NCBI GenBank assembly: GCA_000004985.1
Contig: GG738931.1
DNA: 64,000 bases
DNA from: Naegleria gruberi
Lineage: Eukaryota
Direction: 5' to 3' (one strand)
Made by a program: the position numbers and the translations under genes. Positions 275 to 61,198 of the stretch are shown piece after piece (positions within the stretch are counted from its first letter, which is position 1; each line of letters starts with the position of its first letter). The notes below the pieces were generated by a model, which saw nothing but the letters and a program-made list of their open reading frames with translations, was not told the DNA's origin and ran no database searches.

Positions 275-2620
275 TTACATCTTTGCCAATTCATCCAACA
301 AGTCCTTAACCAAAACAACCTTTTCAGTGGCATTGGTTTCAGTTTGCAAAGCAATCTTGAAAGCATAGAGTTGATATTCAGAGTCAGCATCGAACAACAT
401 ATAGACATGTCTGTTGTCAGACTTTCCATCCTCAAGTTCAATTTCCTTCTTTCCTTCCTTCTTAGCCTTTTCCATAAACTTTTGGAATTCATCATAAACA
501 TATGAGTATGTGTATCCATTTGATGACTTGAGTTGTAATTGACGATTTTCACGATCCAAATAAACAGCTAAATGGCTTCTTTCCAAAGTATCAACATTAT
601 CACAAGTAACAAATCTCAATTTGGTGGCATCAAACTTGTTATAACTGGCATAATAGTCGTGAGTGTATAAATCTAATGGTTTGTTGGAATGTTCTACGAG
701 AATATCCTTCTTCTTTCCAGTAGAGTCAGTAATTGTAACTCTAATAACCAATGGTTGTGGAAGAGATTGATGAGCACGAGCTCTAGAATTGAAATCTCTA
801 CCTGGTTGGCCAGTAACAACAATAGCACCACTGAAAACTAAGTTATCAGCTTGACCTGGTTCAAAGTTAGCAACTTGACCTTCAAAGAATTGGTATTGAG
901 CACCATTCCATCCGTTATATTTAACACCCAATTTGATATTTTGCATTTCAACCCATTCATCGGCTTGATTCTTGTGAGCCATTTCAATCTTGACAAAGGA
1001 CAAATTAGCATCTGACTTGTTAACAACAGTCAATGGAACATTGAAGAAATTGTTGAACTTTCCATCAGTTGCATAAGAGCTTTGAGAAGCTTCAATAAGT
1101 GAATTCAATGCAGCTTGTTCATCAGTGGCAACAAGCAAATTGAATTGAGAATCACCATGATCTTCATACTTCTTACAGTTAGGTCTTGGAACAATGGCCA
1201 AATCTTCACCCTTTTGTGGATTGGTTGTTTGCTTTTCAGTGAGATCCTTATAATATTCGAGTGGCTTTCCAGCAACTTGTGCAATTGGTTCAGTGCTTGG
1301 ATTACCCAAAATCTTCCATGTACCAATAGAAAGAAAACCATCACCATCCTTTCTAATTCTCCAATATGGAGCAGAAATGCTTGGAACAACAAAGGTTGTT
1401 AATCCATCAGTCAATCCATTCAATTGCAAAACATTCTTCCAGTTAATTTCATCTTGAGAGTAGGCCAAATAAGAACCAGCCAAATAAGTTGAACCCCAAC
1501 CAGATACCAACAATGGCTTGACAACAATACCAGTAACGGTATGTGGATGTTCAAATGTAGCTTGAACAAAAGGTCTAGAATTAGAATTAGTAGCAGCACC
1601 ACTATTACCACTTTCATCTTGGAGTGATTCATAACTTTGTCCAATAGAATCAGAAGCGTATTGTGAACTCATTCTAACCTTGTATGACAAGGTAACAGAA
1701 TCTTCAGAAACAGTGGTTGGAACAGGTGACAAGGTTGGAATATCTTCCAATGAAGCCAATTCAACAGCTGGACCATTTCTGGAAACCTTAACATCATCCC
1801 ACTTCAATGGAACCATAAACATGGTTGGCTTTTCACTGTTTGAAAGTTTGATAGAGGCCAAAACATGCAAAGTATTCTTTTGAGCATTCTTGGTCAATAC
1901 GAATGAAGTTGACATTAACCATTCAACACCTGAGAAAGTCTTGGTGGAAGTAACCTTAACATCATAATTAGCAGCAAAATCATCAGCAGAGTTTTGAGAT
2001 CCCAAATCCAATGTAGCATATTCTCCAAAGTTATCATAGATATCCTTCTTTAAGGTTTCAGCAACATTAGTTAATTGATCTGGTGTGAAAAAGTATAACT
2101 TGGAAACAGTAACACCATTCATTAATCTAACATAGAGTTTACCATGTTGATGCAAACCAACAGTGATAGTCTTCTTATACTTGTCACCTTCATCAACGAG
2201 TTCCATAACGTGCAATGGTTCACTAGTATCCATCAATGGAAGTTGCTTTCTATTCAAAAGCTTTGGACTCATCAAGACAATAATATCATCCAAACGTTGA
2301 TCCAAAGTATTAGATTGCAATACTTGACTCAAAAAGGCTGAATCATCAGTTGATTCAATTTCAAATTCTTGATCATTGTAAATAAAGGAAACAACAGAAT
2401 CAAGTGTACTGACACTCTTTCCCAAATGCTTGGCCAATTGAACTTGAAGATCGGAACGGAAATTCTTCCATGTCAATTCATGAGGAGCATATTTCAAGTT
2501 AGTATAAACAAACTTTAATTGCACTTCTTCTTGTGGATCTTGATTTCTAGAAGGTGGATTAGAAAGTGATTTGTAATAAACTCTAATCTTGGTCACTGGA
2601 GCTTGTCTTGAGGTTGTCAT
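275..2620 (-). CDS. hypothetical 781-aa protein, single exon; N-terminal ubiquitin-like/PB1-like segment possible
   Basis: Long uninterrupted ORF with ATG at 2620-2618. The N-terminus (KIRVYYK...FIYNDQEFEIESTDD) resembles a PB1/beta-grasp acidic motif. The rest has no motif I can name. Confidence 0.55.
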   Translation of the reverse strand: MTTSRQAPVTKIRVYYKSLSNPPSRNQDPQEEVQLKFVYTNLKYAPHELTWKNFRSDLQVQLAKHLGKSVSTLDSVVSFIYNDQEFEIESTDDSAFLSQVLQSNTLDQRLDDIIVLMSPKLLNRKQLPLMDTSEPLHVMELVDEGDKYKKTITVGLHQHGKLYVRLMNGVTVSKLYFFTPDQLTNVAETLKKDIYDNFGEYATLDLGSQNSADDFAANYDVKVTSTKTFSGVEWLMSTSFVLTKNAQKNTLHVLASIKLSNSEKPTMFMVPLKWDDVKVSRNGPAVELASLEDIPTLSPVPTTVSEDSVTLSYKVRMSSQYASDSIGQSYESLQDESGNSGAATNSNSRPFVQATFEHPHTVTGIVVKPLLVSGWGSTYLAGSYLAYSQDEINWKNVLQLNGLTDGLTTFVVPSISAPYWRIRKDGDGFLSIGTWKILGNPSTEPIAQVAGKPLEYYKDLTEKQTTNPQKGEDLAIVPRPNCKKYEDHGDSQFNLLVATDEQAALNSLIEASQSSYATDGKFNNFFNVPLTVVNKSDANLSFVKIEMAHKNQADEWVEMQNIKLGVKYNGWNGAQYQFFEGQVANFEPGQADNLVFSGAIVVTGQPGRDFNSRARAHQSLPQPLVIRVTITDSTGKKKDILVEHSNKPLDLYTHDYYASYNKFDATKLRFVTCDNVDTLERSHLAVYLDRENRQLQLKSSNGYTYSYVYDEFQKFMEKAKKEGKKEIELEDGKSDNRHVYMLFDADSEYQLYAFKIALQTETNATEKVVLVKDLLDELAKM

Positions 2621-23557: not shown

Positions 23558-23940
23558 GTTCATGATGAAAGATCTAAGGTAACATAATTATTTCCTATTT
23601 CCCTGGTAGTAAGAAGAAAGAGTAGGGGTTATCTGATGAATTTGTATATGAAAGTAGTAACAAGCTTGATATTCATTACTACTGATGTCTATCAACAAAA
23701 TTTCACATTGCTGATGATGTTTACATATCANNNNNNNNNNNNNNNNNNNNNNNNNNNNNNNNNNNNNNNNNNNNNNNNNNCTATCTGAAGTTCATGATGA
23801 AAGATCTAAGGTAACATAATTATTTCCTAGGTTATCTGATGAATTTGTATATGAAAGTAGTAACAAGCTTGATGATATTCATTACTACTGATGTCTATCA
23901 ACAAAATTTCACAATTGATGATGTTTACATATCAATTAAA
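23558..23940. repeat. direct ~170-bp duplication flanking a 50-N scaffold gap (copy 1 23558-23730 carries a 31-bp insertion; copy 2 23781-23940)
   Basis: Near-identical strings tgttcatgatgaaagatctaaggtaacataattatttcct...gatgtttacatatca occur on both sides of the N-run. Confidence 0.5.
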
Positions 23941-48994: not shown

Positions 48995-49593
48995 TTCGAT
49001 GAATTCTGCTTAACTACCTTAATACACTTTGCGATTGAAAATAAAGAGAATCTTCTGTTTTAAATAATGACGCCACTGCTGCTAATAGTGAATGTCTTGT
49101 TTTCTCACTTTTTTTTCTTCGTTTAATACTTATTAAAGCTCTATCATTTACAGATATAGATTCGCATTATTAATTGTGCACAGAATCGTTCCATGTTTGG
49201 TGCTATGATAAACGACTATTGTACATCTGACGCAGCAAAAGCAATGTATGCTGTGGTAGAATATATTTTCCGTTTTATATTAAGGTTACAGAAACCCGAT
49301 AATGATTGAAAGGAGGTTATTATAACTTTTGTTGATAGAAGCAAAATTTTGACAGAAAAATCAACAAATCGTTGATGCAAGTATGAAAATTCTTTATTTC
49401 CAAACATGAAACAGTGTTGAATGATTCTTGTCTTTATGCGTATTGTCAGCATCTAAATTGTCAACTTATTACAGACCTCAATAAAGGAAATGAGCTTTGA
49501 CAAAAAACCTGAGAAATTGCTCAGTTACTTTTTTGAATGTAGGATTTTTAATTATTAAAATTCACAAAGCAATCGCTTGCAAGCTTTGTAGTT

Positions 49594-49849
49594 TTTTTAT
49601 AGTAGTGATGTGGTTTTGTTGAAAAGATGAATACCGATGATAGCTCAGCTGGTAGAGCATGGGACTGTAGCAAGAAAAACTGTCATCCTGTGGTCGGCGG
49701 TTCGATTCCGTCTCATCGGATACTTTTACCACACAAAGCAATTAATCAATTTTAATTATGACACTTGTTCAATCGAATTTTTAAGACACTTCTGCTTATT
49801 GTACAGTTTTGAATTCTATAAGATCCACATAACTCAAATTTTCTAAGCG
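49594..49849. repeat. left arm of a ~250-bp inverted duplication carrying tRNA-Tyr
   Basis: About 40 bp upstream and about 130 bp downstream of the tRNA are colinear, in inverted orientation, with 52112-52345. There is a 23-bp indel and a few substitutions. Confidence 0.6.
49634..49720 (+). tRNA. tRNA-Tyr (anticodon GUA) with a 14-nt intron (CAAGAAAAACTGTC) at the canonical 37/38 position
   Basis: Acceptor stem CCGATGA/TCATCGG. D-arm GCTCAGCTGGTAGAGC. Anticodon stem TGGGA/TCCTG with loop CTGTAG. T-arm GGCGGTTCGATTCCGTC. Followed by a T4 run. Confidence 0.85.
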
Positions 49850-49919
49850 AATATAAATAATTTTGTTTTAAGAAAAATGTATTATCTTCAGTACAGTTTA
49901 CGTTTTACTTTTAAAAAAA

Positions 49920-50750
49920 ATGCTATGGGTAGAAATGGAGGTGGACATCCCACCAAAACAACAAGCAAAAAGAACACTCAAAGCCTTCGCTAAAATAATT
50001 CAGGTAAGGTGCCAAATAAGAAGACAATTTGACACAAGGCCAAAACAAATTGTTGGAGACAATATAGTGTCAGCAGCTAGATCAACGATCCTTGTTTATG
50101 TTGAGACAAACTCTAGAACAAAACTGGAAAATTTTTTGTTGGCTACTTACCACGCCTTCAAAAGATATTCCCTGTTGTTTATTGCTGATACTCAAAACCA
50201 ACATATAAGACAATCTGTTATACAGGCTCCTAGAAACCCTCCCACTAGTGGTAACGAAGACAGCAGTGACGATACCACATCTATCAAGAGCATTTCACTA
50301 CCTGTACAAACAAATAATTCGCCCAGTAACAGTACTGATACTAAATGGGCTTTATTAGAAGCCTATTTAATTGAGTTGAAAAGAGTTCCTTCTGGCTCGG
50401 AATCAGGCAATATTTCTTCAAGTTACAACTTAAATCCAACAGAAGAAATTATTCATGATACCCATAAAAACAAACCAAAAGTTACATCACCACCAAAACC
50501 AATCAAACATTCTCCAACCCTACAAAGAGCTGTGATACATTTCAAATGGANNNNNNNNNNNNNNNNNNNNNNNNNNNNNNNNNNNNNNNNNNNNNNNNNN
50601 TTGGAGAATGTTTTGGATGCATTGATTAGATTTAATGGAGATGATGAAGCCAAGATTGGATATGCTTTTGAAAAACTAAGACTAAAAGATGACAGAACCG
50701 CAAAATCCATTACAAGATGGTTGTTTTCAACCTTATTGACTAAAGATTAG
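49920..50750 (+). CDS. hypothetical protein (about 276 aa, interrupted by a 50-N gap) located inside the Pol III island
   Basis: ATG at 49920. The ORF spans the gap in frame. A GTAAGG donor-like site at 49947 could mean an intron. No domain recognised. Confidence 0.3.
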   Translation: MLWVEMEVDIPPKQQAKRTLKAFAKIIQVRCQIRRQFDTRPKQIVGDNIVSAARSTILVYVETNSRTKLENFLLATYHAFKRYSLLFIADTQNQHIRQSVIQAPRNPPTSGNEDSSDDTTSIKSISLPVQTNNSPSNSTDTKWALLEAYLIELKRVPSGSESGNISSSYNLNPTEEIIHDTHKNKPKVTSPPKPIKHSPTLQRAVIHFKWXXXXXXXXXXXXXXXXXLENVLDALIRFNGDDEAKIGYAFEKLRLKDDRTAKSITRWLFSTLLTKD

Positions 50751-51437: not shown

Positions 51438-51556
51438 GGCTACGGCCATATCACGATGAATGCACCTCATCCCGTCCTATTTGAGAAGTTAAGCATCGTC
51501 GAGCCACATCAGTACTGAGGTTGGAGACAACTTGGGAACCTGTGGTGCTGTAGTCT
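51438..51556 (+). rRNA. 5S ribosomal RNA gene (about 119 nt)
   Basis: GGCTACGGCCATATCAC...CATCCCGTCC...GTACTGAGGTTGGAGACAACTTGGGAACCTGTGGTGCTGTAGTCT. The 5' GGCUAC pairs with the 3' GUAGUC. Followed by TTTTT. Confidence 0.8.
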
Positions 51557-51560
51557 TTTT
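51556..51560 (+). terminator. Pol III oligo-T terminator (T5) directly after the 5S gene
   Basis: A TTTTT run follows the 5S 3' end. Confidence 0.6.
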
Positions 51561-51815
51561 GGCTTTTGAAAACTGATAACTTTATTGAAATAATCCTTTT
51601 TTTATTTTCCTATAAACAACATGCTCATTCATCATTACAAAACATGAACCAAGTTTGTGTCTAGAAACAAAAATTAGTTCATGACAGAATTTGTTTTGCA
51701 AGTCTGATCAGAACAGAACTACTTTCTTAAAATATAAATTTCTTTTCATGAGAATAAAAAACAATGAAGGTGGTTTGAAATCAAACAATAAGAAAAAAAC
51801 AAAACGAACAACATA

Positions 51816-52046
51816 ATGCAATTATTTGTCAAAACACTCACTGGAAGAACTATCACTTTGGAAGTTGAATCTAATGATTCAATTGAAAATGTGAAAAGAA
51901 AAGTACAAGATAAGGAAGGAATTTCACCAGATCAACAAAGACTCATCTTTGGTGGAAAACAATTGGAAGATGGAAGAACTATTGGTGATTACAATCTTCA
52001 AAAGGATTCAACTCTTCATTTAGTATTGAGATTGAGAGGTGGTTGA
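51816..52046 (+). CDS. single-copy divergent ubiquitin-like protein, 76 aa ending in RGG-stop with no C-terminal extension
   Basis: [76 protein letters not shown]. Thirteen differences from canonical ubiquitin (I3L, K11R, G18S, S19N, N21S, A28R, I30V, P37S, A46G, L56I, S57G, I61L, E64D). K6, K27, K29, K33, K48, K63, L8, I44 and V70 are retained. Confidence 0.8.
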
Positions 52047-52111: not shown

Positions 52112-52345
52112 ATGTTCGCTTAGAAAATTTGAGTTAGGTGGATCTAATAGAATTCAAAACTGTAAAATAAGCAGAAGTGTCATAAAAATTCGATTAATTG
52201 CTTTGTGTGGTAAAAGTATCCGATGAGACGGAATCGAACCGCCGACCACAGGATGACAGTTTTTCTTGCTACAGTCCCATGCTCTACCAGCTGAGCTATC
52301 ATCGGTATTCATCTGTTCTAAAAAACCACACAACTACTATCAAAA
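52112..52345. repeat. right arm of the inverted duplication carrying the second tRNA-Tyr
   Basis: The reverse complement aligns with 49594-49849. The flanks diverge beyond about 40 bp on the outer side and about 130 bp on the inner side. Confidence 0.6.
52219..52305 (-). tRNA. tRNA-Tyr (GUA), second copy, identical including the 14-nt intron
   Basis: The reverse complement of 52219-52305 equals the 49634-49720 gene. Confidence 0.85.
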
Positions 52346-52536
52346 ATTTCTCTGTAATTTGTTTAATGGCTTCTCAATGAAGAAACCTAACCGGCACAGT
52401 ATTTGGCCCAATCAAATTATTATAATTCTCCAGTTAAATAATCAACATCCATTACTTTAGAACTCAGCTTGCTGTTGGGGCCCAAATTATTTTGTTTCTC
52501 AAACGAAAAAAATACCAACAAATACGAATCCACAAG

Positions 52537-58220: not shown

Positions 58221-59429
58221 ATGCCACTCAAGGACGGTGATCGTATTGCATTGAATATTATCAAGGCTGTTGATCTTGTTGCTGCTGATATGAACGGAAA
58301 GTCAGATCCAGTAGGTTTTAAATAAGATGATAATAGTATTGATCTAATATTATATTTATAGTATTTAATTGTTGAAACTGTTAATAAACATGGACAAGCA
58401 GAACATCATCGTANNNNNNNNNNNNNNNNNNNNNNNNNNNNNNNNNNNNNNNNNNNNNNNNNNNNNNNNNNNNNNNNNNNNNNNNNNNNNNNNNNNNNNN
58501 NNNNNNNNNNNNNNNNNNNNNNNNNNNNNNNNNNNNNNNNNNNNNNNNNNNNNNNNNNNNNNNNNNNNNNNNNNNNNNNNNNNNNNNNNNNNNNNNNNNN
58601 NNNNNNNNNNNNNNNNNNNNNNNNNNNNNNNNNNNNNNNNNNNNNNNNNNNNNNNNNNNNNNNNNNNNNNNNNNNNNNNNNNNNNNNNNNNNNNNNNNNN
58701 NNNNNNNNNNNNNNNNNNNNNNNNNNNNNNNNNNNNNNNNNNNNNNNNNNNNNNNNNNNNNNNNNNNNNNNNNNNNNNNNNNNNNNNNNNNNNNNNNNNN
58801 NNNNNNNNNNNNNNNNNNNNNNNNNNNNNNNNNNNNNNNNNNNNNNNNNNNNNNNNNNNNNNNNNNNNNNNNNNNNNNNNNNNNNNNNNNNNNNNNNNNN
58901 NNNNNNNNNNNNNNNNNNNNNNNNNNNNNNNNNNNNNNNNNNNNNNNNNNNNNNNNNNNNNNNNNNNNNNNNNNNNNNNNNNNNNNNNNNNNNNNNNNNN
59001 NNNNNNNNNNNNNNNNNNNNNNNNNNNNNNNNNNNNNNNNNNNNNNNNNNNNNNNNNNNNNNNNNNNNNNNNNNNNNNNNNNNNNNNNNNNNNNNNNNNN
59101 NNNNNNNNNNNNNNNNNNNNNNNNNNNNNNNNNNNNNNNNNNNNNNNNNNNNNNNNNNNNNNNNNNNNNNNNNNNNNNNGGTTATTCAAAATGGTGCCAA
59201 TATCACTTCTTCATTCAAGGACTCTGATACATTCCAAGAAGTATTCCACTACAATTGGAAGTTCACCAATGCTGAGAACAAGTTGATGCAAGTTTGGTCA
59301 ATTATCTGTTTGCCATCTTCCAACACTGCTGGTATGCTTAATTTTGTCTATTATGCTGAAGATTCTCATTTCACACCTGAAAAGTTGCAAGTGGTGAACT
59401 ATTGTGCTCTCAAAACAACTGTCAAATAA
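58221..59429 (+). CDS. C2-domain protein interrupted by the 766-N assembly gap (exon 1 58221..58310, exon 2 begins 58362; C-terminal coding resumes at 59180 and stops at 59429)
   Basis: MPLKDGDRIALNIIKAVDLVAADMNGKSDP|YLIVETVNKHGQAEHHR is a C2 start, split by a 51-nt GTAGGT...ATAG intron. After the gap there is in-frame coding with typical codon usage. Confidence 0.5.
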
Positions 59430-60948: not shown

Positions 60949-61198
60949 AAGAAAACTAATGACAGAATCAATCAAAGCTGATGTTTCTAATTTTNNNNNN
61001 NNNNNNNNNNNNNNNNNNNNNNNNNNNNNNNNNNNNNNNNNNNNNNNNNNNNNNNNNNNNNNNNNNNNNNNNNNNNNNNNNNNNNNNNNNNNNNNNNNNN
61101 NNNNNNNNNNNNNNNNNNNNNNNNNNNNNNNNNNNNNNNNNNNNNNNNNNNNNNNNNNNNNNNNNNNNNNNNNNNNNNNNNNNNNNNNNNNNNNNNNN

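Follow-up and report, generated by a model that had tools for sequence, protein, structure and literature searches.

Gene content of the locus

The window analysed here, a 64,000-nt stretch of contig GG738931.1 from the draft assembly of Naegleria gruberi (GCA_000004985.1), carries on its plus strand a short gene, NAEGRDRAFT_44880, at positions 51816-52046. The gene encodes a single divergent ubiquitin unit and was delimited by translation, an exact-sequence look-up, its Pfam match, an AF2 model and the ends of the open reading frame (ORF). A 259-nt intergenic stretch (51557-51815, plus strand), which presumably holds the promoter and 5' untranslated region, separates its ATG from a 5S rRNA gene at 51438-51556 (plus strand; Rfam RF00001, 97.6 bits), a neighbour only, with no functional link judged present. 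On the other side lies a gene for tRNA-Tyr(GTA) with a 14-nt intron at 52219-52305 (minus strand), and a second copy of it, also with a 14-nt intron, is found at 49634-49720 (plus strand); both were recognized by Rfam (RF00005) and by ARAGORN with introns allowed. The initial annotation had placed the ubiquitin-like gene inside a group of genes transcribed by RNA polymerase III (Pol III), and this description of the flanks is borne out by the 5S gene and the two tRNA genes.

Each tRNA-Tyr gene sits in one arm of an inverted repeat of approximately 260 nt, whose arms (49593-49854 and 52112-52346) are 94-95% identical and enclose a 2.3-kb segment comprising an unannotated ORF at 49920-50750, the 5S gene and the ubiquitin-variant gene. 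The repeat could mark a segment that is prone to inversion or was recently rearranged. The remaining neighbours are ordinary eukaryotic genes, among them members of the Peptidase_S9 (prolyl-oligopeptidase), Cofilin_ADF, C2 and NHL families. Three or four adjacent ORFs on the minus strand between 54788 and 57969 match NHL or teneurin-NHL repeats and probably represent either one multi-exon gene or a tandem beta-propeller family. The window contains four assembly gaps, recognizable as runs of N at 23731-23780, 50551-50600, 58414-59179 and 60995-61198. The gap at 50.55 kb falls within the ORF at 49920-50750, and an apparent dip in GC content to 0.19 at 58-60 kb corresponds to the 766-nt gap there, not to AT-rich sequence.

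A free ubiquitin unit with 13 substitutions

Translation of 51816-52046 yields 76 residues followed by a TGA stop codon directly after Gly76. An in-frame TAA at 51789 lies 9 codons 5' of the ATG, which is the first Met codon thereafter, and the upstream stop, the position of the ATG and the TGA after Gly-Gly together delimit a self-contained gene of 76 codons. Compared with canonical ubiquitin, the product has substitutions at exactly 13 of 76 positions (I3L, K11R, P19S, S20N, T22S, A28R, I30V, P37S, A46G, L56I, S57G, I61L and E64D) and is identical at the other 63 (83%). It matches the Pfam ubiquitin profile PF00240 over residues 3-74 with a score of 103 bits (cut-off 25.4; E = 7e-30), far beyond chance. 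Translation and alignment thus agree with the initial annotation on the length of the ORF, the 13 substitutions including K11R and the Gly-Gly terminus, as they do on the lack of any C-terminal extension or ribosomal fusion. The locus therefore holds a real, intact N. gruberi gene for a ubiquitin that differs at 13 of its 76 residues.

Among the residues checked for roles in recognition by E1, E2 and the proteasome and in chain formation, K11 is the sole loss. The Arg at this position is encoded by AGA, and six of the seven acceptor lysines are present (K6, K27, K29, K33, K48 and K63). The hydrophobic patch L8/I44/H68/V70, the patch I36/L71/L73 and F4 are all unchanged, residues 71-76 read LRLRGG, and both R42 and R72 are in place, so that the earlier statement that L8/I44/V70, K48, K63 and LRLRGG are kept is confirmed throughout. 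The full set of unchanged positions comprises M1, Q2, F4, K6, L8, T12, T14, K27, K29, K33, E34, I36, R42 and I44 in the first part of the protein and G47, K48, D58, Y59, K63, S65, H68, V70 and L71 to G76 in the second.

The AF2 model of the product (pLDDT 93, pTM 0.80) has ubiquitin topology, with strands at residues 2-6, 12-16, 41-45 and 66-71 and a helix at residues 23-34 arranged in a beta-grasp fold. The best PDB matches of this model in Foldseek are all ubiquitin, with 1UBQ superimposing at a TM score of 0.96 and an rmsd of 0.9 Å. Four substitutions fall in the core and all are conservative (I3L, I30V, L56I and I61L); the others occupy surface or loop positions, and three of these positions, 19, 28 and 57, are known to vary among canonical ubiquitins.

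An exact-sequence look-up identifies the protein as EFC36388.1, XP_002669132.1 and UniProt D2W3I3, a 'predicted protein' of N. gruberi from a 138-kb scaffold; it is on record from one contig only and from no transcriptome-derived source. A literature search for the identifiers of NAEGRDRAFT_44880 returned no paper that mentions any of them. The possibility that the ORF is what remains of a truncated gene of two units, hinted at by GTC AAA codons in frame beyond the stop, was considered and rejected: alignment of the 230 nt upstream and the 230 nt downstream to five ubiquitin-like units was no better than that of shuffled sequence (p = 0.12-0.91).

Paralogues in Naegleria gruberi

The ORF is the only ubiquitin-like coding sequence that tblastn detects within the 64-kb window, and there is one unit at the locus. 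In this sense the designation of the gene as single-copy holds, but for the genome as a whole it does not, as the same variant unit opens two more gene models of N. gruberi, located on other scaffolds. One of these, here termed P0020, encodes 129 residues on a 782-kb contig; the other, P0064, encodes 115 residues on a 442-kb contig. Residues 1-43 of the first unit (unit A) of P0064 are identical to those of the ORF, and unit A of P0020 is identical to it at 46 of 49 positions. When 240 fetched proteins were scored for the 13 substitutions of the ORF, P0064 shared 12 and P0020 shared 11, whereas each of the other 237 shared at most 5.

Both models run on into a second and more divergent unit (unit B; 62 residues were read), which is of a further divergent type with about 15 substitutions, among them F45Y and Q31F, and which has kept K11. 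Identity between units A and B within the N. gruberi models is 78-83%. In both models a truncated first unit is joined to the second with pieces missing, and they look like mis-spliced predictions, with mispredicted introns, of genes that would encode two ubiquitin-like units. P0020 in addition has a C-terminal tail, NPWAAFSY.

Protein searches returned the best 120 matches with lengths up to about 1.75 times that of the query, a scope deduced from maximum lengths of 133, 95 and 219 residues for queries of 76, 54 and 125 residues. The 54-residue query (residues 11-64 of the ORF) was chosen so as to list single-domain proteins only, that is, proteins of up to 95 residues. Against a collection of 5.8 billion proteins it recovered the ORF itself at 107 bits, and the other single-unit matches listed within this length range were all ordinary ubiquitins of at most 83% identity, none of them closer to the ORF than ordinary ubiquitin is. 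Among these matches, then, there is no close single-unit counterpart in other organisms.

Relatives in Naegleria fowleri

Two 'hypothetical proteins' of N. fowleri were retrieved with a composite query of 125 residues, made of unit A and the start of unit B; their DNA entered the comparison as five loci (L001-L005). FDP41_010776 (P0341 in our protein set) has 156 residues and consists of two units and a short tail, TLCI; FDP41_001718 (P0350) has 202 residues and consists of two units and a damaged third. The first units of both genes begin with the same 15 residues, continue with Glu or Asp and share the 11 residues that follow. Over residues 1-27, the first unit of FDP41_010776 matches the ORF without a difference and that of FDP41_001718 departs from it only by E16D, so that I3L, K11R, P19S, S20N and T22S are present in both. 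Over its full length the ORF is identical at 65 and 66 of 76 positions to the two units of FDP41_010776, at 63 to canonical ubiquitin and at 40 to human NEDD8. From the N. fowleri first units and the second unit at L001 it differs at 10-12 positions (84-87% identity), for example by F45Y and P38A.

A character matrix of the readable units from both species shows that I3L, S20N and E64D are common to all of them and that P19S is found in every unit except Nf_L004_U2, which has Met at position 19. We refer to this divergent Naegleria ubiquitin family as MQLF-type, a name coined in the present analysis. Within the family, the pair K11R and T22S sets first units apart: it is found in the ORF, in unit A of both P0020 and P0064, and in Nf_L001_U1 and Nf_L004_U1. 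Among later units, K11R occurs in none and T22S only in Nf_L001_U2. The ORF carries all four family residues (I3L, P19S, S20N and E64D) together with the K11R/T22S signature of first units, and it consists of one unit, whereas the four other known members of the family are multi-unit.

The third unit of FDP41_001718, at L004 10457-10707 (N. fowleri VFQX01000027.1), is broken. It contains an internal duplication, in which NVKRKIC occurs twice, a frameshift and a TAA at the codon for K48, and the annotated 202-residue protein consequently ends in a junk tail. This damaged unit is evidence that the MQLF-type family evolves by birth and death and tolerates decay.

The two N. fowleri loci also bear on the Pol III surroundings, which the initial annotation had called odd. 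Rfam finds no 5S rRNA or tRNA genes within 10 kb of either FDP41_010776 or FDP41_001718, and no ORF of the 64-kb window matches those loci, so that there is no synteny between them and the N. gruberi locus. A conserved linkage of the ubiquitin variant to Pol III genes was therefore rejected, and with it the notion that the position is meaningful. Because these neighbours are absent from the non-syntenic N. fowleri loci, and because no unit remnant flanks the ORF, the 5S and tRNA-Tyr genes are most simply read as incidental neighbours in a compact genome that have no part in the function of the gene.

Metagenomes were searched with peptide patterns as well. A pattern for a 14-residue peptide gave 0 matches, and a pattern for a 13-residue peptide matched one contig, Ga0209174_10001283 (L006). 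This eukaryotic contig of 39% GC encodes at 1213-1332 (minus strand) a ubiquitin-like segment, of which 35 residues were read, that carries I3L and K11R, from which it follows that the combination of I3L with K11R arose elsewhere too. As an environmental relative of the family the contig was rejected, given a partial match of 40 residues, its 39% GC and the lack of the S19/N20/S22 signature; the match probably ends after 40 residues at an intron. A giant-virus or other foreign origin of the N. gruberi gene was likewise rejected, on the grounds that a variant-specific peptide pattern matched no viral contig, that the neighbouring genes are eukaryotic and that base composition is uniform.

Selection and age of the family

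Substitution rates were estimated by the Nei-Gojobori method. For the ORF against Nf_L001_U1, dN is 0.089, dS 1.04 and dN/dS 0.086; for the ORF against Nf_L004_U1, the values are 0.109, 1.33 and 0.082; and for the two N. fowleri first units against each other, they are 0.033, 1.14 and 0.028. Across the MQLF-type family, dN/dS thus ranges from 0.03 to 0.09 with dS at or near saturation, values that span the whole history of the lineages since the split from N. fowleri and not the time since the ORF copy arose by duplication within N. gruberi. The near-saturation of synonymous sites, combined with the small number of replacement changes, shows that the family is old and has been under purifying selection. 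It predates the split between N. gruberi and N. fowleri, and the constraint acting on it is looser than that on canonical ubiquitin.

Ordinary ubiquitin, redundant copy or conjugatable variant

The initial annotation had offered three alternatives for this gene: a functional ubiquitin variant unable to form K11 chains, a lineage-specific modifier, or the ubiquitin of an organism in which this protein is unusually divergent. The last of these, which would require that the canonical genes of N. gruberi share the substitutions of the ORF, could appeal to the recurrence of the ORF's unit at three or more N. gruberi loci. Yet a polyubiquitin of N. fowleri (PDB 5VIX, NF0029300) reportedly shares 96% identity with human tri-ubiquitin (PMC7990177) and scores against the ORF much as canonical di-ubiquitin does (266.9 vs 259.8 bits). 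Since this protein exists beside FDP41_010776 and FDP41_001718, N. fowleri possesses near-canonical ubiquitin and the divergent family together, and because the divergent family is older than the species split, the same coexistence would be expected in N. gruberi. Moreover, units A and B of the N. gruberi models are only 78-83% identical, unlike the homogenized repeats of a species' own ubiquitin. Antibodies to ubiquitin and to its K48 and K63 linkages, raised to the canonical protein, also stain N. gruberi (PMC11772885), which weakly supports the presence of canonical ubiquitin there. It is thus highly improbable that the ORF encodes nothing more than the species' regular ubiquitin; by extension from N. 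fowleri, the gene is most likely a paralogous variant. The first two alternatives fit best, a functional variant or a lineage-specific modifier being consistent with dN/dS values of 0.03-0.09 and with the conservation of K11R in the first units of both species.

The interpretation we favour, with a probability of roughly 0.6, treats the ORF as the one-unit representative of a divergent paralogue family specific to Naegleria, and its product as most likely a conjugatable ubiquitin variant. The MQLF-type family is older than the separation of N. gruberi from N. fowleri and would since have undergone birth and death alongside the canonical ubiquitin genes. Translation of the ORF would directly give the mature protein of 76 residues with its Gly-Gly end, with no need for processing by a deubiquitinase (DUB). 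The kept R42, R72 and LRLRGG, together with the hydrophobic and I36 patches, should permit charging by the ordinary ubiquitin E1 (Uba1), after which the product would be conjugated and recognized like ubiquitin. This expectation of activation by the ordinary E1 and of ubiquitin-like conjugation follows from the retention of the residues recognized by E1, of the interaction patches and of six of seven lysines. Linkage through K48, K63 and other sites would be open to the isoform so added to the ubiquitin pool, whereas linkage through K11 would not.

Weighed against this reading is the prospect that the ORF arose lately by duplication of a first unit from one of the N. gruberi multi-unit genes and is redundant, too recent to have decayed, weakly expressed or silent, and without function. 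Its identity to P0064 unit A over residues 1-43 and to P0020 unit A at 46 of 49 positions fits recent duplication or gene conversion, and birth and death within the family is illustrated by the broken unit at N. fowleri L004. The gene furthermore lies in a locally rearranged segment bracketed by the inverted tRNA-Tyr repeats, a positional orthologue was not found in N. fowleri, and neither the look-up of transcriptome-derived sources nor the literature search brought up the protein or a paper naming its gene. But the ORF has a clean ATG, a stop exactly after Gly-Gly, no frameshifts and no relic of a neighbouring unit; a stop codon right after the Gly-Gly would not be expected in a fragment cut at random from a tandem array; and the changes by which the ORF differs from the wider family are all conservative. 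A functionless recent copy is accordingly an unlikely account of the locus, albeit one to be taken seriously. Still less probable is a distinct modifier with its own E1 and E2, in the manner of NEDD8, or a ubiquitin-fold protein that binds partners without being conjugated. Thirteen changes, including those at surface positions 19, 20, 22, 28, 37, 46, 57 and 64, could retune the choice of partners, and human Ub-KEKS, with 4 changes only, modifies a distinct set of targets (PMC7066184). This very improbable reading is countered by R72 and an LRLRGG that is ubiquitin-type in its entirety, by an identity to NEDD8 of only 53%, by interaction patches that are all unchanged, and by the exposed Gly-Gly end, which speaks for conjugation.

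Within the favoured reading of a conjugatable variant, K11R may have a specific role, and the first unit bearing it, conserved in both Naegleria species, appears to be the feature most deserving of follow-up. It is tempting to speculate that this unit represents a 'K11-less' isoform conserved across Naegleria from before the parting of the two species, a natural linkage-restricted ubiquitin that caps or excludes K11-linked and K11/K48-branched chains. A monomer gene independent of DUBs might then allow the dose of the isoform to be set separately from that of the multi-unit genes, possibly during stress or the amoeba-to-flagellate transition. We consider this extension improbable.

Ubiquitin is a textbook example of a near-invariant protein, and escapees that are intact and under selection show which positions can change without loss of the fold or of the signals for conjugation. 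Naegleria keeps ubiquitin variants of approximately 83-87% identity beside near-canonical ubiquitin and has had a first unit devoid of K11 from a time before the two species separated. Provided that the variants do become conjugated, part of the 'ubiquitin' signals in Naegleria, the pathogenic N. fowleri included, would stem from non-canonical isoforms whose chain topology is restricted. Tryptic peptides specific to the variants (38 residues of the protein serve as an example) make the question of conjugation directly testable in existing proteomes.

Comparison with known systems

The divergent ubiquitin family shared by N. gruberi and N. fowleri is previously undescribed, but it is otherwise unremarkable and does not constitute a new kind of modifier; what the ORF encodes is a paralogue, so far uncharacterised, of a familiar protein, and no new system is involved. 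With canonical ubiquitin it shares the length of 76 residues, the beta-grasp fold, 83% of its sequence, the interaction patches, R42 and R72, LRLRGG and every lysine but K11. It departs from it in three respects, namely near-invariance, K11 and precursor architecture, and agrees with it in fold, Pfam profile and C-terminus. Canonical ubiquitins differ from one another by about 0-4 residues and the ORF by 13, one of which replaces K11 with Arg; and canonical ubiquitin is made as a fusion or repeat precursor that requires cleavage by DUBs, whereas the ORF encodes a free monomer ending in Gly-Gly.

Its closest relatives outside N. gruberi, FDP41_010776 and FDP41_001718, have in common with it I3L, P19S, S20N and E64D and, in their first units, K11R with T22S, at a dN/dS of about 0.08. 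Unlike the ORF, they string two or three units head to tail, end in a short tail (TLCI) and need processing. NEDD8/Rub1 resembles the ORF product in being a beta-grasp modifier of 76 residues with LRGG at its end. The human NEDD8 sequence used in the comparison was verified against PDB 1NDD. At 40 of 76 identical positions (53%), against 63 of 76 for ubiquitin, and with R72 instead of A72, assignment of the ORF to NEDD8/Rub1 was rejected. R72 is the residue by which the ubiquitin E1 tells ubiquitin from NEDD8, and NEDD8 itself is about 58% identical to ubiquitin, while its orthologues are much closer to NEDD8.

Other departures from canonical ubiquitin are on record. Callis and colleagues reportedly described, in 1995, Arabidopsis polyubiquitin-like genes with substituted repeats, and Krebber and colleagues are said to have found, in 1994, a monomeric ubiquitin gene in Giardia. 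Many protists have a diverged ubiquitin moiety in Ub-S27a; that of Ub-L40 is approximately 15% diverged in Giardia and two lineages of Plasmodium (vivax and ovale), and these diverged Ub-L40 moieties keep the fold, most lysines and the hydrophobic patch (PMC10457151). These proteins resemble the ORF in their escape from near-invariance, in the retention of fold, patch and most lysines and in a comparable divergence of about 15%; they stay fused to a ribosomal protein, however, whereas the ORF encodes a free monomer akin to the repeats of polyubiquitin. The human pseudogene-derived parallel is Ub-KEKS, encoded by UBBP4, which carries Q2K, K33E, Q49K and N60S and has been shown by experiment to be expressed and conjugated (PMC7066184). 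Like the ORF, it is a diverged copy of ubiquitin with a Gly-Gly end and with changes at residues used in chain building or recognition, and it exists beside canonical ubiquitin. Ub-KEKS has 4 changes and the ORF 13 different ones; should the Naegleria variants prove to be conjugated, they would parallel this human protein.
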